A DNA stretch of 64,000 bases from Candidatus Bathyarchaeota archaeon (GTDB lineage Archaea; Thermoproteota; Bathyarchaeia; Bathyarchaeales; Bathycorpusculaceae), in contig CAWGYA010000006.1 in NCBI GenBank assembly GCA_963826715.1, forward strand, positions 64,001 through 128,000, in the 5' to 3' direction. The translations under genes and the position numbers were made by a program. Shown in pieces: positions 18,747 to 28,690 of the stretch (position 1 is the first letter of the stretch; the number at the start of each line of letters is the position of its first letter). Below the pieces are notes generated by a model. The model was not told where the DNA came from. It worked only from the letters and a program-made list of their open reading frames with translations, and made no database searches.

Positions 18747-19835
18747 CTACCTTGTGATTTTGGCCTGCTGCACCGTTTCAAGGCAGTTTTTGGCTTCTTT
18801 GTTGTTAGCGAAGTAACGGCGTACAGGTTCAAGGATGTTGCCAAGTTCAGTCGCTACACCATTTTTGAGGTCCATTGGATGTAGTTTACCCTCGCTATAA
18901 TCGGTTTCAAGCTGCTGGAAGCTTTCGAATTGGATGTTTCCGCCGAATTTTGCAGGCCGTTCAATGGTTAAGGCGTTTCTCTCTCGGAAAATAATGTATT
19001 TGCAGACATCCATTATTGGATTGTATTTGACTGTTTTATCTGGACAGAACGCTTTTGACATTTTCTGCTTGATTTCCTCGGGAGAGTCGTATATGAATAT
19101 GCAAGTGTCAGGTTTACTCTTGGACATCTTCGCTGAAGCAACAGCTTCTTTTTCCTGTCCTTCAGGAATCGGCCATAAACTGGGCTTTGCTAGTCCCTGC
19201 AATAAGTGATGATGAATGCAAACAGGTTTCCAATAACCGATTTTTTCACCTATCTCGCGGGCAACCATGTTTGCTTTCCTTTGATCCATGCCAAGCTGGC
19301 ACATTTTAACGTTCATCTCAAAAATGTCGGCTACCTGCATGGGGGTATAGAGATAGTCGCTGACATAGTGAGCTTCTCCTTCCTTGCGCCCAGCGATTTC
19401 CAGGGTGCGTGTTGTTCGTTTAATAGTGAGTTCTTTTGCGATTTTTACGGTTTTAGCCCAATAGTCGATGTCATTGTAGAGTTCATCGCTATAAATGAAT
19501 TCAATTTTGTCGCCTGGTACTCCGAGTGCGAGCCAGCTGTGGCGGAAAAGGTCTGCGGCTTTGCGGATAAGTTCCTGGTCGCCGCCGAGCTTGTTGTTAA
19601 GCCATGCATGCCACGTAGCCAAAAAAGCTTTGAAGTGAATGCCGGCTTCGGCGAAGTCCTTCATTTTGTAAGCGCAGATAACGCCTGTACCAAGGTGTGC
19701 AAGTCCTGAAGGTTCCCACCCGTTGTAGGCGATTGGTTGCTCCTCGGCTTCAAGGAGGGCACGGAGGTCCTCTATGGTTACGATTTCTTCGGTTGGCGGT
19801 CTGCAGATGAGTTCGATTTTTTTCTCAATATCCAC
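18747..19835 (-). CDS. tyrS: Tyrosine--tRNA ligase
   Basis: YNGWEPSG..HLG, MQVADI, GMDQRK, KMSKS, LHPMDLK. Confidence 0.96.
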   Translation of the reverse strand: MDIEKKIELICRPPTEEIVTIEDLRALLEAEEQPIAYNGWEPSGLAHLGTGVICAYKMKDFAEAGIHFKAFLATWHAWLNNKLGGDQELIRKAADLFRHSWLALGVPGDKIEFIYSDELYNDIDYWAKTVKIAKELTIKRTTRTLEIAGRKEGEAHYVSDYLYTPMQVADIFEMNVKMCQLGMDQRKANMVAREIGEKIGYWKPVCIHHHLLQGLAKPSLWPIPEGQEKEAVASAKMSKSKPDTCIFIYDSPEEIKQKMSKAFCPDKTVKYNPIMDVCKYIIFRERNALTIERPAKFGGNIQFESFQQLETDYSEGKLHPMDLKNGVATELGNILEPVRRYFANNKEAKNCLETVQQAKITR

Positions 19836-19919
19836 GTAGTTCCAGCTCTCTCAAAGTAGCTATAAATGATTTGGGAATTTAAGAATTTACTTGATGAAGA
19901 AAATATTTTACGGGCGGTT

Positions 19920-20120
19920 TGTCTCCCGACGTAACCTAACACTTCACCTCACAGCTAAGCGTCGCTATAAGCTTGGTGAAGCTCTCTCGGCGCGGGAATT
20001 TATGCCCGAGTCTCCCTGTACCATAATTGGGTAGAACTCGCAGGTCACTGGTGCAAGATTTGTGTTTCTTGCGTTCCTCGGTTGAGTCCGTCGTTATGGA
20101 TGCTCAAATATTGGGAGACA
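19920..20120 (-). ncRNA. Putative unannotated structured RNA (about 200 nt)
   Basis: Paired ends TGTCTCCC/GGGAGACA enclosing several hairpins; G-U pairs favour the minus strand. Confidence 0.55.
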
Positions 20121-20454
20121 TCTACAAGAGAGAAGTAGCTGAATTTATGTTTACTTCCTTCTTTAAGGGATTTTAACGCCATTGAACGCTAAATTTAGGT
20201 AAATTGAGTTTGAGAAAATAAAAACTTAGAAAATTTGATTCACTCTTCAATTAAATTGTTTTTTAAATAAGTTTTATACGCAACTGTAAATTCAAAACCT
20301 TCTAAGCCGTTTCTTAGAAGGCCCTCTCTATTGTAAACCTCCAAAAAATCGCCGCTAAAGACAACTTTAACCAAGGGATTATTGATTAGTTAAAGTTAAG
20401 TCATTTGTAAAGTAACACAGTATATGCCTCAAAAATTTGAAGAGTTAATAAAAT

Positions 20455-21018
20455 ATGGATATTGGCAAAACAGTTTATTTTAGTGACCGCCAAAGTTGGC
20501 GTAATTGGCTTGCGCAACATTACAATAAGGAAAAAGAAATTTGGTTAGTTTACCCCAAAAAGTCAAGTGGCAAACCGCGCATAGTCTACAATGATGCAGT
20601 TGAGGAGGCCTTGTGTTTTGGCTGGATTGACAGCACAACAAAAAGAATAGATGAAAATAGTTATGCTCAACGATTCTCACCGAGAAATCCTAAAAGCACC
20701 TATTCTGAAACCAACAAGCAAAGGTTAAGAAAACTTGTCGCGGAAGGCAAAGTTATACCCTCAGTGCAAGCAGCAATCAAAGATTTTCTGGAGGAAGAGT
20801 TTGTGATGCCAATGGATATTTTGGAAGCAGTTAAAGCAAATAAACAGGCATGGGAGAACTTCCAGAAATTCTCGTTTTCATACAAAAGAATCCGCGTAGC
20901 TTACATTGAGGGTGCTAGAAACAGACCAAACGAGTTCAAGAAACGATTAGAGAACTTCATTAAAATGACTGAGAAAAACAAGCAATTTGGCTTCGGAGGA
21001 ATTGAAAAATATTACTAG
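20455..21018 (+). CDS. YdeI/OmpD-associated family protein
   Basis: WRNWL, ALCFGWIDS, FSPR, C-terminal OmdA-like domain. Confidence 0.9.
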   Translation: MDIGKTVYFSDRQSWRNWLAQHYNKEKEIWLVYPKKSSGKPRIVYNDAVEEALCFGWIDSTTKRIDENSYAQRFSPRNPKSTYSETNKQRLRKLVAEGKVIPSVQAAIKDFLEEEFVMPMDILEAVKANKQAWENFQKFSFSYKRIRVAYIEGARNRPNEFKKRLENFIKMTEKNKQFGFGGIEKYY

Positions 21019-21028
21019 ATTATCGGAG

Positions 21029-21102
21029 GGCCGGGGCCGAGATTTGAACTCGGGCGAAAGGCTCCACAGGCCTCTATGCTGCCAAGCTACATCACCCCGG
21101 CC
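21029..21102 (-). tRNA. tRNA-His(GTG)
   Basis: Cloverleaf; anticodon arm GAGGC-CT-GTG-GA-GCCTT; encoded G-1 and C73. Confidence 0.96.
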
Positions 21103-21191
21103 ACTTTTCCATAGATTTCTTGCACCTCGGCCGGTTTTACTTATTTCCGACCAAGATTCGCTTGGCGCTGTTATTGTCATGTCAAACACCT

Positions 21192-22070
21192 TTATTTGCG
21201 TTTTCTGAAAATTTTGCGGCCATCGTTGTACTCTCCTGTTATTTACTCAAAGCCAACGTCTATGAACTCGCATGCTTGTTGTGTATTGAGCGCTAAGCGT
21301 GTTATGTATTGGTCATTTGGTAAGTCTTTGAATAGGCTCTTTTCTAGCTGAACGTATAACCTGGTGTTTTCTATGCTTTTATGACTAGGAACTCTGCAAC
21401 GTATGAATATCGGGTTTATGATGGTATAGCATTGTTCCCTTCCAATAACGGAAAGTATGCATGTGTATAGCTTCTAATCGAGGGTTTCCAAGTTTGAAAG
21501 CTAAGCGTTTTCTAGTTCGACCAAGTTGGTTTTTTAATCCGTATTGGCTGACATTTCCTAATAGCATATTGTTTTCTTTTGGCAAGTTGCTAAGCATGTT
21601 TAGCAGTTTTCCAGACAGGTCGTTGAATATTCGGGGGGTGCTTCCTTTCTCGGGATAGTTGCACATAATAATACGTCTTTCTAAGTCAACGTCTTTCCAG
21701 GGAACAGCTATTGCCTCACCTCTACGCATCCCGTTTCCGTTAGTAATTGCAGAAAAGCCGCTAGTATGTTGGGTGATCCAGCGATTAAATCATCGATTTC
21801 TTGTTCCGTAGGTATGAAAGGCAGTTTTCTAACAATCGAATATCTAGGCGCATTCCAAGAAATACCTAAATATTTCAAGAATTGCGTATATGCGATTATT
21901 ACGTTTCTTTGCCGGTTACCGCTCCATTTCTGTTTTGCCATTACTTCTTTGACGCTTTCAGGGTTTGCTAAGTCTGCGCCTCTTTTCATTAATGTTCTTA
22001 ATGCGGATTTGCTTAGCGGATTGTTGAGGGGTTGTAGTTTTGCAGCTCCATTTTTCCGTGGTGTTTAGCG
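21192..22070 (-). pseudogene. Tyrosine integrase, disrupted
   Basis: Fragments KLPFIPTEQEID, TG.RRGEA, HTFRYWKGT, HKSIENTRLY and a KIFRKRK tail; at least 2 frameshifts plus an internal stop. Confidence 0.9.
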
Positions 22071-22764
22071 ATTTTTATTTCGATATTTTCCAAGTTACTC
22101 GTAACAGTCTTTGTTTCTGTTAACTTAGTAGGTTATTATTGGTTGACTATTCACTTTAGCATTTAAAAGGTTAAGCTAAAGTCTCAGAAGCCACCGTAAC
22201 AGACAATGAAACATAAGACATGGTTTTAATTAGGAAATAACTTGAAGAATAATATTTTAAATCAATTATTGGTTTAGGAGTCTCTTTCTTTTCATTTTTG
22301 CAATGAGCCCTAACAAAGTATGGGTAAAATTTTTGATTCTGTTTTCAGAAGATATTCAAATCTACTTTCCGATCTAACTTGCAAAACAACTCAGGAAACA
22401 TGGACACTGGAAAATAGAGTCTGTTTTTGGAATGCAAGTCGGGTAAGAGGCAACTCGATATAAATAATGGAATAGTTCTTAACCGTAAAGGAATATCTAT
22501 CTCTGCCTTTTCAGCTAGAAAAATAAATTTATAGGTAGCGACTTTGCCGTTGCTGGTTTCTAAAGTTTTAATACGGGTGTACCTGAATACGCAAATCGAT
22601 TAAATCAAAAATTTTTCAGATTGAGGAAAATTCTTAAGCTTAAATGTGTTGCTGCCAAAAAGATTAAGGTAATGATCGTGTTGCGTTTTTCTTTGGTTTT
22701 TCAGATAACCATGAAAGAAGGAAGATTAAAGAATCCACTCATTCTAACAAACAGGGTGTAGGCT

Positions 22765-23364
22765 GTGGATTCTATATTTGTTTTATATGAGCTTATTTGG
22801 TACACCGTATTTGTGTTTACCTTAATTTTCTCGCTGAAAAGACAAGGGTTCATGCACTCACTTATTTTCTTCTTACCCGGAATAGTTTGGGGGCTATTAC
22901 TTGAATATGCGACCCAAGAAGTCTTTCACAGATATTTTTACGGTGAAGGTTTTCTTGTATACATTGCAAATGTCCCTTTATGCGTATCGTTGGCTTGGGC
23001 AGCTTTAATGTATATCAGCTATTATTTTGTTACTCAGAAACTTCAGTTAAAAAATTCAATAGCTGTTGCGGTTGTTGCAAGTATTCCTCTGCTTTTGGTG
23101 GATGCTATTATTTTAGAGCCGACTGCTAAAATCTTTGGTTTTTGGGTGTGGACACCTCAAGGTTTATGGTTTGGCTCTTCTATAGGCAATTTTTACGGTT
23201 GGTTCTGGGTAATCGTGTTATATCTTTCTTTTTACCATTTTTTGCTTTGGAAAATAACCAATTTGAGAAGAGCACTATTGCTAAATCTTGGGCTTATCAC
23301 CCTAAGAGTTATCATTCTCGTTGCATTGCTCCAATTATATAGTGTCACATTTGGAAATCTTTAA
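22765..23364 (+). CDS. CruF/DUF422-like membrane protein
   Basis: LLEY, VPL...AW, DAIILEP, WVW, NFYGW. Confidence 0.7.
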   Translation: MDSIFVLYELIWYTVFVFTLIFSLKRQGFMHSLIFFLPGIVWGLLLEYATQEVFHRYFYGEGFLVYIANVPLCVSLAWAALMYISYYFVTQKLQLKNSIAVAVVASIPLLLVDAIILEPTAKIFGFWVWTPQGLWFGSSIGNFYGWFWVIVLYLSFYHFLLWKITNLRRALLLNLGLITLRVIILVALLQLYSVTFGNL

Positions 23365-23523
23365 CATATTGGCGTTAAATTAAGTAAAACTATTTCTCTT
23401 TATCTTCAGCCGTTACATTTTAATTGTTGCCGTCTATCGATCGTCCATTTTGTCTTCAACCAACTATCGCTAATAACTGTTTACTTCAAATTGACTACTG
23501 TAGGATGCGTAAGAATAAAAATA

Positions 23524-23829
23524 AAATATTATCGAGTCAGCTGATGAGTCGTTGTACCCCGATTATCAAGGCATCAGTTTAGGCAAACGATTTCTAAACT
23601 TCATCGCTGAACTCTACACTTCACAAACGAAAATGCCTTTCTATATCCTAAAAAGTACCCTCAAATCATTAGAGGAACCATGAAGAATTGGCGAATAGTA
23701 CGTTTTGGGCATGTAAGCAAAGGTAATGGAGCTACACTAATTAACAATGAGATAAGAAGTAGCCTAAGCCGAAATCGTATAACAGTTTCTCTTCAATATG
23801 CTAATTCGAAGTCTTCTCTCAAATCTTGA
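23524..23829 (+). pseudogene. GNAT acetyltransferase C-terminal remnant
   Basis: YYRVS...PDYQGISLGKRFLNFIAELY...WRIVRFG...RITVSLQY across frameshifts. Confidence 0.65.
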
Positions 23830-23830
23830 C

Positions 23831-24501
23831 TTAGATCAACGAGTTAGTGTTAACAATAGTATTCGTGCTAGTAGTGATGTTGGAAACATAGGAACCTTTG
23901 TTTACAATCTCCATATGTTTTTGAACTAATTCGAGCCTTGACATTCCCTCATTCAATCCACAATTACTGCAAAACTTAATTTTCTCTTCTTCTGTTGGTG
24001 AAATAGCACAAAATCCGCCACCTACAGGAGAAGCTGTACAGAAACCACCCCTATTCATGTGGAATAGTGTTGAAACAGTTCAGTGACCTTGAAATCTTTG
24101 CTCACAAAGAAATTAGCGCCGCCAGTTTCATAGTCATAAACACTAACTACATAGGGGTCATCAATCGAAAAATGTGTGAAATATTGAAAGCCTCTAAAAT
24201 CCCTACTTGGAAACGTCACCGTCATTGAACCAAAACCCTTATCGTCAAGTGCTACTGAACCCAAACATGCACCGCCGCCTTCCTCTCCACACTTAACCTT
24301 AATATTGACGGCTTGGGTAAGATATGCGTCTGTTCTGAAATTGATAAATTTGACTGTGATTTCTACGGATTGAGGAAGGTTTGTTTTATCGATTATTATT
24401 TTGACCTGAGGTTTTGGTGAAGCTAATGCAGGAGTTATGAAAAGAGAAAATGTTATTGCAGCTATTATTAAAAATATAGATAAATGTTTTAATCCATGCA
24501 A
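23831..24501 (-). CDS. Secreted hypothetical protein, possibly split in two ORFs (24055-24501 and 23831-24058)
   Basis: Signal peptide in the first ORF; overlapping Cys-rich second ORF. Confidence 0.5.
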
Positions 24502-24731
24502 AACTTCAAACCTCGCTATAGTTTACAAGCAATTTATCTGTAATCTGGTAGTTAACCTTTACGTGTTGTTTGAATTTAGTGTGACGGCGGTTATGTGATT
24601 AGTCGCATTGATATCGGGTTGGCTCAAACAAGTAATTGCCGTACAGCCTCGGTTTCCGATGACAATTTCAACAGCTTCGTAGAGCTACAAGAATAGCCGT
24701 ATTTTTCTATTTTTCGTTTGAGGTATATCAA

Positions 24732-24950
24732 GTGAGTTATGGAACTAAAGGTGGTCACGGTTACGGAAACACCCTTTTGCGAAAAGCTAGAAGAGTTCAA
24801 TCTCGACGCAGTCTTCACGCTAAAGCTATTGATGATCGTTTGAAAACGCCTAAAGCTGTTGTCTGGATAGATGCAAACCCATCTTCGCTTAGTTTTGTGT
24901 ATGGTGTATGTGCCGTGACCGCTTATAGGTCTATTGATTTAGAAGTGTGA
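24732..24950 (+). CDS. Small basic hypothetical protein or remnant
   Basis: GAGGT RBS; MSYGTKGGHGYGNTLLRKARR. Confidence 0.4.
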   Translation: MSYGTKGGHGYGNTLLRKARRVQSRRSLHAKAIDDRLKTPKAVVWIDANPSSLSFVYGVCAVTAYRSIDLEV

Positions 24951-25060
24951 GATACATAATCATGACTCTGCAAGGCCGTAAAAGCGTGAATAATGCAACT
25001 AAAAAATAAAAAAAGTGGATAACTTATTGTTTGAGTTGGTGGCTTGACTGAGTTGAGCAG

Positions 25061-25477
25061 CTATGGCATTACTGGACACAAGACATCAGCGTTTGGCATT
25101 CTAGCAATACTCACGTCGCTACTACCCGCTGCAGTCATTAGTTCGCCATAGGATTCAATTAAGTAAGGCGCTACATTCCAAGTGACAAAATAGACCATCC
25201 AGTGCCCGCCATTATATTGAGGGTCTCCAGGAGCAAATTGAATAACGCTACTTTGTTCTTCGTTTGGAAAAGCATAGAGAGGGTCAGTTCCTGGATTATT
25301 CAGTGGATGCCCATTAGGAACAAAAGTCCTTACCTGATACCCTTCATACCAAAGTGCGCCAAATTCGCGACCACCAGCATTGGAATGCGCAGGAGAAGCT
25401 GCCATAACCGCAGAAGCTTGAATTGCAACAATAGAAGCTAAGAGAACTGCTATTAAAACAAAAGATAATTTCTTCAT
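25061..25477 (-). CDS. Secreted hypothetical protein
   Basis: Signal peptide; APGDPQYNGGHW and LCPV. Confidence 0.8.
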   Translation of the reverse strand: MKKLSFVLIAVLLASIVAIQASAVMAASPAHSNAGGREFGALWYEGYQVRTFVPNGHPLNNPGTDPLYAFPNEEQSSVIQFAPGDPQYNGGHWMVYFVTWNVAPYLIESYGELMTAAGSSDVSIARMPNADVLCPVMP

Positions 25478-25572
25478 TGTTTATTACCTATAAAAGGTAG
25501 CGATAAAAATACATTTAAAAGCAGACGGACAGAACTTGAAACAAACTAGTACAAATCTCGAATTAAGATAGG

Positions 25573-26157
25573 TTACTCTTTACTGTTTGTTTTGGAAGTA
25601 TCTTTAATTTTTGGTTGTTTTTCGGGTAAGATTTTGAAGTCTGTTTCCATAAATGAACGCAAGACTTTGCTGATGAGCTTGTCGGTGAAGCTTGACTCAG
25701 CCATAAGAAGGGCTTTTCTGACGTTTTTGTTTTGAATTGAATAGATGCTTTCGTAGCCTATCTGTTTTTTATTTAAGACGTAATTATCCGTCAAATATTT
25801 GAGATAATATGAGAGTGTAGAAGAGGGAAGATGAAAATAATCCTTTAAATCTTGAAATTTTACTATTTTTTTCTCAAGAACGATTAACACGATTTCTCGC
25901 ATCTTTTCATGTCTTAATGCTGAAATTAGGATATGTTCCTCTTCTGTAGGGTGCTGAGAAAAATATCGTGTGAACCCGCCCTCTCTTTCTCGATATATAA
26001 CGTTATGTCTAACCATATAGTCAACATGATATTCTAGTGACGAAAGGGGAATTTTTGATCTTCTTTGAAGTTCTCTGAGATGGAGTCCTGGGTTACTTTT
26101 GATAAGATCAAAAACTCTTTTTCTTATTGAATTCGCAAGCACAATTTCTTTAAACAT
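25573..26157 (-). CDS. Tandem winged-helix transcriptional regulator
   Basis: NPGLHLRELQR..LEYHV; second HTH STLSYYLK. Confidence 0.85.
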   Translation of the reverse strand: MFKEIVLANSIRKRVFDLIKSNPGLHLRELQRRSKIPLSSLEYHVDYMVRHNVIYREREGGFTRYFSQHPTEEEHILISALRHEKMREIVLIVLEKKIVKFQDLKDYFHLPSSTLSYYLKYLTDNYVLNKKQIGYESIYSIQNKNVRKALLMAESSFTDKLISKVLRSFMETDFKILPEKQPKIKDTSKTNSKE

Positions 26158-26162
26158 ATATT

Positions 26163-26438
26163 CTAATCCTTTAGCACACCGACAACTATGAAAATTAAAC
26201 CTATTAGTTGAAAGAGAAGAAACACGTTTTCGGGCATCATAAAGCTGTATTGTTGACTTAGAATTTTTGGCAGGTGTAAAATTGCCCCAATAAAGAAAGT
26301 TCCGAAGCCCAATGTTATGAATAGCATTCGAGTTGTTCTTATTCTGCAATATGCCAACAGAACAATTACAAACAAAAGTGTTGTTGTGGCTATCAATCCA
26401 ATTCCAATAGCCATTTCAACCATTATTTCAAAGCTCAT
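26163..26438 (-). CDS. Small 3-TM protein preceding the HTH gene
   Basis: LAY.R.RT.RML...GF; 5 bp upstream of the HTH start. Confidence 0.75.
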   Translation of the reverse strand: MSFEIMVEMAIGIGLIATTTLLFVIVLLAYCRIRTTRMLFITLGFGTFFIGAILHLPKILSQQYSFMMPENVFLLFQLIGLIFIVVGVLKD

Positions 26439-26756
26439 TTACTTCCCTATAGTATTTTTTCAAGCGTCATTAAAATCTGTTGAGTAATCTGGGCCTCTCA
26501 TCCCTAATTTTAAACTCTTCAGCCCTCGTGAATACTATTACAACTTTACATCCACCCTGAGCCACATATAATTTAGAGTTTAGAAAACACTGAAAATTTT
26601 TTATCAATCCTCAAAAAAGAAAAAAGGGATTGCATGTTTCTTAAATACAAAAACTGTTGGTGATGTCACCAATTGAGGGTATGCCGTGCTAGGCTACGAT
26701 CCCTTTTCAATCACTTTACAATGGGTTACGTACCTATCTATGAAGTCTCGGGGGTA

Positions 26757-26855
26757 ACTCCGAGTTTTTTGCGTGGCCTAAAACCTGAAACCTCAACATC
26801 GGAACTAACCAATTTTAGAAGCCTCCAAAAAAAAGAAAAGGGAAAAGGTTACGAG
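26757..26855 (+). repeat. Subterminal sequence shared with 48837-48930
   Basis: ACTCCG(A/C)GTTTTTTGCG(T/G)GGC(C/T)TAAAACCTGAAAC...CTAACCAA in both copies. Confidence 0.85.
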
Positions 26856-27288
26856 ATACTTGGAAAAAAGCCTAAAATCGCCCGAGATACATCACCCCGG
26901 CCACTTTTTGATGTTTTCGTCTACTTTGCCTGCGCCTAAAGCTTGGTTATTACCTATTTTCGCTTCTTCATAAATATTAAGTTGTCCTTTTGACAAACGT
27001 TTTCGAATCCAAATTCTCATAGGGCTTTTATTTACACGAGACTTTCAACAACTTTTAATTTTACTCGTCTGTAGTTGTTTCAAATTTTGTATTGAATATA
27101 GATTTCATTACAGGAACATGCATTGTGTTTGTAGTTGCCTTGATATGTGAAGGTGAAAAAATAGACAAAATTAGCAAAAGTCATGTAAGTATATTTAATC
27201 TGCAAACGAGGAAAATAGACATAGATTTTTAAATTAAGGCTATATTTTTATTGGGTCAATTATAGTATTAACCCATGATTGGTGTAGC

Positions 27289-28395
27289 ATGTCGGTAGCA
27301 ATTGTAGATGGAGTTTCTAGTCTGTTAACTGGTTTAGTTTCTGGAACAGTCGCTTTTTTCCTAGTTATGCTACTATCGATAGTATATAGGTATTTTACAA
27401 ACGAAAAATTGTCCTCTTTCATTGGCATCGTATTTGGATTAGGATTTCTAGGATTTTCAGGAGGACTACTAGCAATCTTAGAACAGCCTTCCTTGGGCGG
27501 TGTCATTCAAATTGTCGCGGTAGCCATATTCATAGTTTGGGGACTAAATACTGGCGATAAAATAGCTGAAAAGATTCCCAGAAAAAGCCCTACCTCAATT
27601 TTAAATGGTATTCGAGGAGGAAAAACGACATATAAAACAATCAAAATGCCAATTTCAAGGCTAATACACGACATGGTGGGAAAACCCCGAGTCCCTGAAT
27701 CGTTAAAATCTGAACTATCGGAGCGAGAATTCACTCTTCCAGCTGACATTCCCGTTGAAGAAATTATAAATCGAGTAAAGAGGCGATTGATTACAGATTG
27801 GGGAATTGGTGAAGTTGAACTTGAATTGGATCAAGAAAGTAAAGTCATCCACCTAGCAATAGCGGCTAAGGAACGAGGCTTGAGCGTCACAATACCAAAA
27901 GGCAGTGTGGCCATACCCATTGAATGCCAAGTAATCCCATCTAACCTCGTTTCCGGTGATTTAGTGAGGATTTACTTTGAAAACGACAAAGTCATAGAAA
28001 AAATCGAGGTAAAAGGTATAGATGAAGAGCACAGAGTAATAACAATTATCGCAGATTTGAATGCATTGGATTCAATACGTGGGAAAAAATCAGCTTTGGT
28101 AGTTGCTCTCCCTTCTGATTTGCCAAGCCATCAGATAATCAGTGTAGAACAAAAATCAGGGGAAATTGAAGATTTTAAATTTCAAAGAATTGTAAGTTAC
28201 TTAAGAAGAGTGGAGGTAACTAATGAAACTGCAAAAAGGATCGTAATGAGTGTTCAGGCGAAACTAAGCAAAATGGACCCTCCAATTTCCACGCGGATAA
28301 TCAAAGCAGCAGTAGTTGAAGAATTGGAAAAAGAAGATCCAGAAGCAACAAAGAAATTAAGGAAACGAAAATTGCCGGATCTAAAGGGGCACTAA
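27289..28395 (+). CDS. Membrane protein with C-terminal ATP-cone-like domain
   Basis: 3 TM, LPAD.P.EE...RL..DWGIG.V; C-terminus VEQKSGEIEDF..RI...ISTRII..VVEEL. Confidence 0.7.
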   Translation: MSVAIVDGVSSLLTGLVSGTVAFFLVMLLSIVYRYFTNEKLSSFIGIVFGLGFLGFSGGLLAILEQPSLGGVIQIVAVAIFIVWGLNTGDKIAEKIPRKSPTSILNGIRGGKTTYKTIKMPISRLIHDMVGKPRVPESLKSELSEREFTLPADIPVEEIINRVKRRLITDWGIGEVELELDQESKVIHLAIAAKERGLSVTIPKGSVAIPIECQVIPSNLVSGDLVRIYFENDKVIEKIEVKGIDEEHRVITIIADLNALDSIRGKKSALVVALPSDLPSHQIISVEQKSGEIEDFKFQRIVSYLRRVEVTNETAKRIVMSVQAKLSKMDPPISTRIIKAAVVEELEKEDPEATKKLRKRKLPDLKGH

Positions 28396-28690
28396 ATTGG
28401 TTGGGTGGATCAATTTAAGTCTCTTTCAAAAATTATTGATTATTCTAACCCTCATTACAAAAATCAGAATCTGTAAAGAAATAAAACATAACGAAAAAAA
28501 TAATTGGCAAATTACTTTGACCAATTATGATATTGGCAATTACTGACAGAGCAATAAAAAAAGAAAAAAGTAGCAATACAAGCTTTTTGCGTTGATGATG
28601 AAATGAGAATAAACACCCAACAATATACAGTGTCTGAATTTCATGAAGACAGCAAAAAATATATTCTTAAATGAATTAAGTTAAAGGTAG

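Follow-up and report, generated by a model that had tools for sequence, protein, structure and literature searches.

Introduction

Mobile elements are held to integrate only rarely into the 5' part of a tRNA gene, and in archaea such integration has been tied, in the excerpts of the literature considered here, to one self-splitting type of integrase. In bacteria, Zhao and Williams reportedly described 5'-distal integration in 2002. The pTN3-like integrases have been called 'unique in archaea' for their use of the 5' half of a tRNA gene, and the tRNA rebuilt after integration of this type, cut from its own promoter, was said to be expressed from the integrase promoter (excerpts of PMC8371274). 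The pTN3 integrase gene is disrupted on integration, the attachment site (att) measures 41 bp and the minimal site is tRNA-Leu positions 2-44 (excerpts of PMC5495485). Krupovic et al. 2019 termed 5'-distal recombination 'considerably less frequent' and listed one such case, CalSub-E1, in the tRNA-Ser of Ca. Caldiarchaeum (excerpts of PMC6563490). No 5'-side tRNA-His integration in Bathyarchaeia was described in the main-text excerpts covered, which included PMC10848311, PMC11697101, PMC11705971 and PMC13573593. In this study, we analysed a 64,000-nucleotide stretch (the window) of a Candidatus Bathyarchaeota archaeon, G000:C6:64001-128000 of the 2.64-Mb genome G000, in which a 5.8-kb island adjoins the 5' end of the tRNA-His gene.

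It is highly probable that positions 21109-26887 of the window are a decayed mobile element, inserted by a tyrosine integrase at the 5' end of tRNA-His after an older use of the same site by a second integrase type. We observed a repeat of the tRNA 5' segment, an integrase pseudogene, a relic of the older integrase, empty-site forms in relatives and a family-wide preference for the 5' side of tRNA-His. The island is decayed and ordinary-looking, and its interest lies in the habit of the integrase family that it reveals.

Results

The island is bounded by a duplicated 5' segment of tRNA-His

The features at the two borders are given below; class B denotes the island's own integrase type and class A the relic type beyond attR.

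21028-21101, minus strand: tRNA-His(GTG); ARAGORN, Rfam tRNA 53.3 bits
21088-21108: attL core, made of tRNA positions 14-1 (21088-21101), G-1 (21102) and six leader bases (21103-21108); exact 21-bp repeat
21109-21191, minus strand: spacer from the integrase stop to the att core
about 22123-21192, minus strand: class B tyrosine integrase pseudogene; found by tblastn with the intact integrase of G018
26830-26887, minus strand: element arm adjoining attR (P arm), with terminator-like oligo-T runs of 6 and 8 on the integrase strand
26888-26908: attR core, the second copy of the 21-mer, 5800 bp from attL; exact repeat, bridged by an X1 contig
26909-27211, minus strand: class A integrase relic, comprising a spacer, a stop codon (26954-26956) and the terminal 25 to about 97 codons, interrupted by stops

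A first-pass annotation of the window had proposed an integrase-type element at the 5' end of tRNA-His, and the repeat, the pseudogene and the empty sites described below uphold this proposal. The 21-bp repeat is exact and covers the six leader nucleotides, G-1 and tRNA positions 1-14, as had been read; over the wider span 21082-21108 / 26882-26908 the identity is 25/27. The window holds no other exact direct repeat of at least 21 nt, and the longest found in 50 block-shuffles of the window was 18 nt. With up to 2 mismatches allowed, the 21-mer occurs at these two sites only in the whole genome. G-1 is genome-encoded, and tRNA-His, described in the first-pass annotation as normally single-copy, proved to be so in G000, being one of 37 tRNAs (46 with introns allowed) with no second copy found by blastn. 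To the left of attR there is also a degenerate copy of tRNA positions 15-35 (13/23, counted by eye). An independent Logan contig of run X1 bridges attR over 26779-27285 with 0 differences, and all 30 depth bins of the island were covered in the same run, indicating that the repeat is not an assembly artefact.

The integrase pseudogene is directed at the tRNA, and its original stop codon (21192-21194) stands 90 nt ahead of the tRNA-His 5' end, the distance first annotated. The island integrase is 68-73% identical to that of G018, with 68% over 117 amino acids (aa) in the best piece (E 1e-50, tblastn) plus further pieces; four pieces in frames 1, 2, 0 and 2 match residues 33-343 of this intact relative, and the damage consists of three frame changes and one in-frame stop. 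The RRGE, HxxR and LGH...Y motifs, which we take to be the catalytic ones, are readable but lie in different frames, with the in-frame stop, so the copy is dead. PF00589 scored 25.2 bits on the core piece, under the cut-off of 27.1, and no N-terminal Zn-ribbon was detected in the pseudogene. With a tRNA-segment repeat at both ends, an adjoining integrase and an empty site in relatives, the island has the features of a tRNA-targeting integrative element, and the duplicated segment (positions 1-14, G-1 and leader) differs from the canonical 3' sublocation.

Three side observations concern the core and its surroundings. A degenerate second core copy (13/16, counted by eye) lies at 21123-21138 in the spacer between integrase and tRNA; it resembles a tRNA-His acceptor-stem variant of other species, and a core-like spacer copy is common to the long-spacer class B relatives L032, L041 and L033. 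It could be an earlier att fossil or an extra binding site. Next, tRNA-His positions 10-11, inside the core, vary among genus members (AT, GT or AG), and, judged by eye, changes at position 11 seem to be matched by changes at position 24, which is outside the core; the wrong variant in an element would therefore make a D-stem mismatch, which may limit host range. Finally, the P arm carries a conserved GTTACGAG motif at 26848-26867, and this stretch forms an inverted pair with 22086-22105 (20 nt, 18/20 complementary), one arm lying within the 5' part of the integrase pseudogene, the other within the P arm at a distance of about 20-40 nt from the core of attR. This layout recurs, as a sequence variant of its own, in the class B element of G043, and the pair may represent integrase-binding sites.

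Empty sites and an older class A relic

We compared window positions 19800-28500 with 40 relatives, 24 of them congeneric, using blastn. In eight congeners, one matching piece ended at 21108 and the other started at 26882-26888. The two pieces met on the same base in G022, G013, G019, G005, G023 and G009, were off by one nt in G020, and were separated by a 21-nt gap in G016. A 264-nt metagenome contig (X4) showed the same join with 10 differences and 1 gap, 17 nt corresponding to 21071-21087 being followed by 26888-27135. Six congeners to the base, G020 within one nt and the X4 contig thus bear out the expectation that relatives without the island join 21108 to 26909. In addition, one X1 contig departs exactly after 21108 and continues as a class A-type spacer; it represents a relative or strain with another occupant at the site.

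The DNA beyond attR proved to be integrase-derived. Positions 26957-27031 encode, on the minus strand, a class A integrase C-terminus (72% over 25 aa to G023, E 1e-5, tblastn), and a weaker, stop-ridden class A alignment extends to 27211 (E 4e-6, tblastn). At the DNA level, the relic is colinear with three integrase gene 3' ends, those of G023 and G005 (both intact) and of G002 (near-intact, frameshifted), and with short relics adjoining tRNA-His in G022, G013, G019 and G016; in these last four congeners and the X4 contig, the class A relic sits directly at tRNA-His. Class A and class B integrases are about 50% identical, and the far end of the island contains no integrase part from the island's own gene. 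Since the empty-site relatives join the class A integrase end to the tRNA, the class A insertion would be the older one and the class B island specific to the window's lineage, and the presence of the class A relic beyond attR indicates that the tRNA-His site was used at least twice.

Two other candidates at this border were rejected. A 42-aa open reading frame (ORF) at 26892-27020 was considered as a small conserved gene, and the conserved frame turned out to be that of the integrase C-terminus instead. A third degenerate att bounding the older relic was sought with a 15-mer and up to 3 mismatches, and none was present in the window.

The integrase family prefers the 5' side of tRNA-His

The first-pass annotation had pointed to the att preference of the closest intact integrases, and these use the same site. 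Three congeners have an intact integrase upstream of tRNA-His in the same orientation, namely G018 with a protein of 343 aa and its stop codon 85 nt ahead of the tRNA, G023 with 311 aa and 43 nt, and G005 with 454 aa and 46 nt. All catalytic motifs are in frame in these three, and the G005 protein has an IS1-type Zn-ribbon at its N-terminus. Integrase pseudogenes occupy the same site in the congeners G002, G010, G020 and G009. The intact relatives scored 64.6 and 70.3 bits against PF00589 (cut-off 27.1), placing them in this family, and 77.5 and 81.3 bits against archaeal XerA (NF040815), under its cut-off of 220. Because the intact relatives stop 43-88 nt before the tRNA, an att site inside the integrase ORF (SSV type) was ruled out. 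An 89%-identical integrase was found in a 'Ca. Bathycorpusculum soli' record, and the host is taken to be a soil archaeon of the Bathyarchaeia.

Of 3507 candidate proteins, 1909 matched the wider family with E values no higher than 1e-10. An integrase-alignment scan of one genome per species left 80 loci, whose titles were Bathyarchaeia or synonyms except for two bins labelled Sulfurimonas and Tenericutes. These two loci (L063 and L105) carry a Bathyarchaeia-type integrase and are probably mis-binned contigs. The 80 loci were distributed as follows.

5' side, co-directional, tRNA-His: 24 loci, tRNA 45-101 nt downstream of the integrase
5' side, co-directional, tRNA-Phe: 3 loci
5' side, co-directional, tRNA-Arg(gcg): 3 loci
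5' side, co-directional, tRNA-Pro(ggg): 1 locus
3' side, convergent, tRNA-Cys: 18 loci
3' side, convergent, tRNA-Pro: 2 loci
No tRNA nearby: 29 loci, 5 of them without room

The 5' side therefore accounts for 31 of the 51 tRNA-adjacent loci, and the convergent 3' side for 20 of all 80. A quick FastTree of 81 rows, run without a clade test, included 70 survey loci (10 that were short or contained stops were left out), the integrases of G005 and G023 and 9 G000 copies taken from 10 full-length-looking ones among 16 loci; L065 duplicates G005 and L032 is G018. All 25 His-5' rows fell into one clade (local support 99) together with 3 Phe-5' rows and 9 rows without a tRNA, and this clade contained no 3' targeter. 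It splits into a class B part of 13 rows and a class A part of 23 rows. The Arg/Pro 5' group lies outside it, beside the Cys 3' clade, and from this separate placement 5' targeting seems to have had at least two origins. The Bathyarchaeia integrases that use the 5' side of tRNA-His form a large and apparently undescribed group. A C-terminal FRKRK followed by the stop was considered as a disguised promoter and rejected, as the same ending occurs in 3'-targeting branches.

In G000 itself, the family occupies sixteen loci, several of them beside tRNA genes. Canonical 3' cases are present at tRNA-Pro(ggg), with a 23-bp repeat 41 kb apart (G000:C7:151978-193182), and at tRNA-Leu(tag), with 25- and 24-bp repeats at 22 and 23.7 kb (G000:C8:454972-478679); the 22-kb tRNA-Leu(tag) element has two further att copies. 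As a separate observation, G000:C1:3681-4770 holds an integrase with 61% identity to class A that stops 64 nt short of tRNA-Phe, on its 5' side. A search for a second copy of the tRNA-Phe 5' segment gave none, so that this is probably another relic of a 5'-side insertion; the case is supported only by the integrase next to the tRNA.

Intact elements and integrase remnants in the genus

The G005 element is 33.4 kb long and bounded by 17 identical core bases (positions 16 to -1). The G023 core has 22 bases and the window core 21, and all three share positions 14 to -1. Among 27 ORFs of the G005 element compared with PHROGs, genes for the large terminase and for major head, scaffold, minor tail and neck proteins identify it as a head-tailed provirus. 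Four class B-type elements with both ends recovered measure 9.3-15 kb, and two of the three scanned (51 ORFs) carry D5_N/DUF5906 helicase-primase genes. Tailed proviruses and small helicase-bearing elements alike are thus users of the tRNA-His 5' site.

Tandem arrangements also occurred. G044 has the order tRNA, class B element, core and intact class A integrase, and G045 differs from it in that the class A gene is a pseudogene. Three copies of the core were counted in G042, two integrase pseudogenes plus a second core-like copy occur in G020, and in G023 a further class A relic comes after the far core. By this comparison, the window layout is a decayed version of a common tandem layout.

The genus sample comprised 25 genomes (G000 and 24 others), and the 5' flank of tRNA-His was readable in 20 of them.

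Intact integrase: G005, G018, G023
Integrase pseudogene: G000, G002, G009, G010, G020
Relic of 16-37 aa (tblastn E 0.01 or better): G013, G016, G017, G019, G022
Last few codons, by eye only: G003, G012, G015, G024, perhaps G007
Nothing recognisable: G008, G014

Integrase-derived DNA therefore lies directly upstream of tRNA-His in 13 of 20 flanks by statistical match, and in up to 18 of 20 when the by-eye cases are included. The lock-in of the element end by tRNA-His, which the first-pass annotation had suggested, is consistent with these sequence comparisons.

Proposed course of insertion and decay

We propose that site-specific recombination by the tyrosine integrase would bring the element in at the 5' end of the sole tRNA-His gene, with the crossover inside tRNA positions 1-14, G-1 and the short leader. 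With the crossover in this segment, the element would carry its own copy and rebuild the gene. The integrase reads towards att and ends 43-101 nt before it, so its gene would not be split by integration. The class B element would have landed between the tRNA and the class A relic, displacing the relic by 5.8 kb. Later decay would have killed the class B integrase, removed any replication genes and left few cargo ORFs open.

Transcription of tRNA-His and alternative explanations

Since the 5.8 kb upstream of tRNA-His are all element DNA, transcription of this gene must start in element DNA. In the free circle, the integrase transcript would terminate about 40-60 nt beyond the core, at an oligo-T run; integration would move this run to the far end of the element, and the tRNA body would now follow the integrase. 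An oligo-T run of 6-8 on the integrase strand, 39-60 nt past the core, was present in 7/7 P arms of both classes, the P arms within a class being related to each other. We give even chances to the view that tRNA-His is co-transcribed with the integrase, or transcribed from integrase-gene DNA, through this terminator swap and then processed out. A broader extension is possible rather than probable: in many Bathyarchaeia the sole tRNA-His would be promoterless, a passenger of integrase genes or their relics, and the exchange of a terminator for the tRNA would make an essential gene depend on the element, anchor the element end and turn the site into a reused landing pad. If true, this would be an addiction-like strategy acting through promoter donation and not through toxins.

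Promoters were searched with a crude position weight matrix (PWM), for which the 45 other tRNA genes of G000 supplied the upstream training sequences. No match of at least 5.5 was found within 300 nt upstream of tRNA-His. The nearest ones were at -775 and -1064, and the latter sits just upstream of the integrase pseudogene.

22154-22165, minus strand: candidate TFB-recognition-element (BRE)/TATA-like box; crude PWM score 9.0, -1064 from the tRNA; weak evidence

The same insertions could have left tRNA-His with a promoter of its own in the spacer or the last integrase codons, independent of the integrase promoter; we hold this to be a serious possibility, though one short of an even chance. G013, G016, G017, G019 and G022 keep only the last 16-37 codons and the spacer, and G003, G012, G015 and G024 even fewer codons (by eye), and tRNA-His must be expressed in them; in addition, an A/T-rich stretch lies at -47 to -34, the usual distance for tRNA genes (by eye). 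However, the A/T-rich stretch did not score with the PWM, the best value within 90 nt of tRNA-His being 0.7, whereas the other tRNAs had a median score of 7.8, and 16 of 22 integrase-adjacent tRNA-His loci had no match of at least 5.5 in 200 nt, the others being inconsistent. The roughly ten relic sizes, of which the smallest is about 90 nt on a rough reading, are uninformative on constraint and lend such a spacer promoter no statistical support.

Several observations count against the element-driven transcription and the insertion history preferred here. The presence of a BRE/TATA-like box within 90 nt in 42 of the 45 other tRNAs is circular, as the PWM was trained on them, and 42% of random 300-nt genome pieces also lack a match. 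The tRNA-His loci with 16-37-aa relics showed no consistent PWM site, and as such relic-only loci have no integrase promoter, another start must exist there. The window stretch was not found in any RNA run, and neither a start site nor co-transcription was observed. As regards lock-in, random deletions would also spare DNA beside an essential gene. As to the insertions, position alone gives no order, which rests on the relatives and the one 264-nt contig, and for attL no independent contig among those listed bridges the junction, which rests on the assembly. The cargo genes of the window had no homologs in the five intact elements compared. No joints of excised or joined forms were found in four DNA runs of one study, and no free viral genome encoded a relative of the integrase; the one exact core-pattern match among viral contigs was a full tRNA-His without an integrase beside it.

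The first-pass annotation had placed the native promoter of tRNA-His, left behind by a single insertion, beyond 26908. This DNA does lie directly upstream of tRNA-His in the empty-site relatives and was the previous upstream region, but it encodes the class A integrase C-terminus with its stop, aligns base for base with the integrase 3' ends of G023, G005 and the frameshifted G002, and corresponds to a layout that G044 shows with the class A gene intact, which makes this explanation very improbable. That the repeat arose by chance or misassembly, or the island by homologous recombination of a chromosomal segment, would fit a dead integrase, whose present activity is undemonstrable, and the unbridged attL, but is scarcely credible given a repeat longer than any in the shuffled windows, the bridged attR with full depth coverage, borders that match the empty-site joins to the base in the eight congeners and the metagenome contig, and the same core bounding other elements of the family.

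Cargo and flanking genes

Apart from the integrase, the island carries the following ORFs.

22765-23364, plus strand: Caroten_synth-family membrane protein; intact 199-aa ORF, PF04240, E 5.4e-16
23497-23799, plus strand: GNAT acetyltransferase pseudogene; tblastn 49% over 108 aa, stops visible
24055-24501, minus strand: 148-aa protein with a hydrophobic, signal-like N-terminus; ORF list, no Pfam match
25061-25477, minus strand: 138-aa protein with a signal-like N-terminus; ORF list, DUF7482 sub-threshold only
25573-26349, minus strand: winged-helix regulator (HVO_0163-type helix-turn-helix); PF24266, 39.2 bits
26163-26438: small membrane ORF of 91 aa overlapping the listed start of the regulator; DUF7471 sub-threshold

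A Pfam scan of the ORFs revealed no replication or virion genes in the island, and tblastn with the G005 terminase and capsid proteins gave matches in G000 on C5, C7 and C8 only, not in the island; with no terminase, major capsid and tail gene set, the island is not a head-tailed provirus. DNA similar to the cargo occurs elsewhere in congeners, with 75% identity to the Caroten_synth gene in G010 (blastn) and an 87% match to the 148-aa protein gene in G015. The GNAT assignment came from an intact paralogue (PF13508, 34.4 bits). This family of about 155 aa is multi-copy, with about 11 other places in G000 (C2, C4, C5, C7 and C8), and several of these copies either neighbour an integrase gene or fall between att copies of the tRNA-Leu and tRNA-Pro elements. 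The family was not found in the five related intact elements compared.

The flanking genes are listed below.

20455-21018, plus strand: YdeI/OmdA-family gene, host flank; PF13376, E 1.5e-13
27289-28395, plus strand: membrane protein; weak match to the ATP-cone profile PF03477 (19.9 bits, under the cut-off)

The YdeI gene is syntenic with tRNA-His in G002, G010, G012, G014, G015, G022 and G023. The first-pass annotation had expected an empty-site order of YdeI gene, tRNA-His and ATP-cone gene, and this failed on its last member: the ATP-cone gene was not within 8 kb in the loci of 16 relatives, and in G022 it lies 32 kb from tRNA-His. On the other side, a stretch of about 200 nt without a long ORF (19906-20107), located between the YdeI gene and tyrS, showed 79-86% identity across most matching genus members. 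On its minus strand, a 7-sequence alignment folded into a multi-helix structure with 61 pairs, 4 of them compensatory, and a covariation term of only -0.22, and Rfam gave no match at E 0.1. The stretch may be an RNA not yet described, or else the leader of the tyrosyl-tRNA synthetase gene.

Discussion

The findings show an ordinary, non-splitting integrase clade that routinely uses a tRNA 5' site in an abundant uncultured archaeal class. In practice, this provides a rule for locating element borders in Bathyarchaeia genomes, namely to inspect the DNA upstream of tRNA-His and tRNA-Phe. The locus also offers a natural case for studying how an essential tRNA is expressed after its upstream DNA has been replaced, and a possible explanation for the persistence of integrase relics at tRNA-His in most species of the genus.

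Compared with known systems, the present family shows both likenesses and differences. Like the classical non-suicidal archaeal integrases, it belongs to the same protein family and has the integrase gene beside att, and its sister branches act classically, convergent with the 3' ends of tRNA-Cys and tRNA-Pro. Unlike the classical 3' targeters, however, an element of the present kind must supply the 5' segment of the tRNA, G-1, the leader and all upstream DNA. The single 5'-distal cases listed in the literature excerpts also differ, since here the 5' side is used clade-wide. The likeness to the pTN3-like integrases (pTN3, TKV4 and MVV of Thermococcales; excerpts of the sources above) is that attB lies in the 5' part of the tRNA. 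Whereas the pTN3 att lies inside the ORF, the present integrase ORF stops 43-101 nt short of the core and is left complete by integration, so the 'suicidal' arrangement of SSV and pTN3, with attP inside the integrase ORF and the gene split, does not apply. The present core of about 15-22 bp (positions 1-14/16 and leader) also contrasts with the 41-bp att of pTN3 (same excerpts), and the hosts are mesophilic Bathyarchaeia, unlike the Thermococcales hosts of pTN3. The present family is thus pTN3-like in its relation to the tRNA but is not of the pTN3 type, having an unsplit gene, a short core and a position among 3' targeters.

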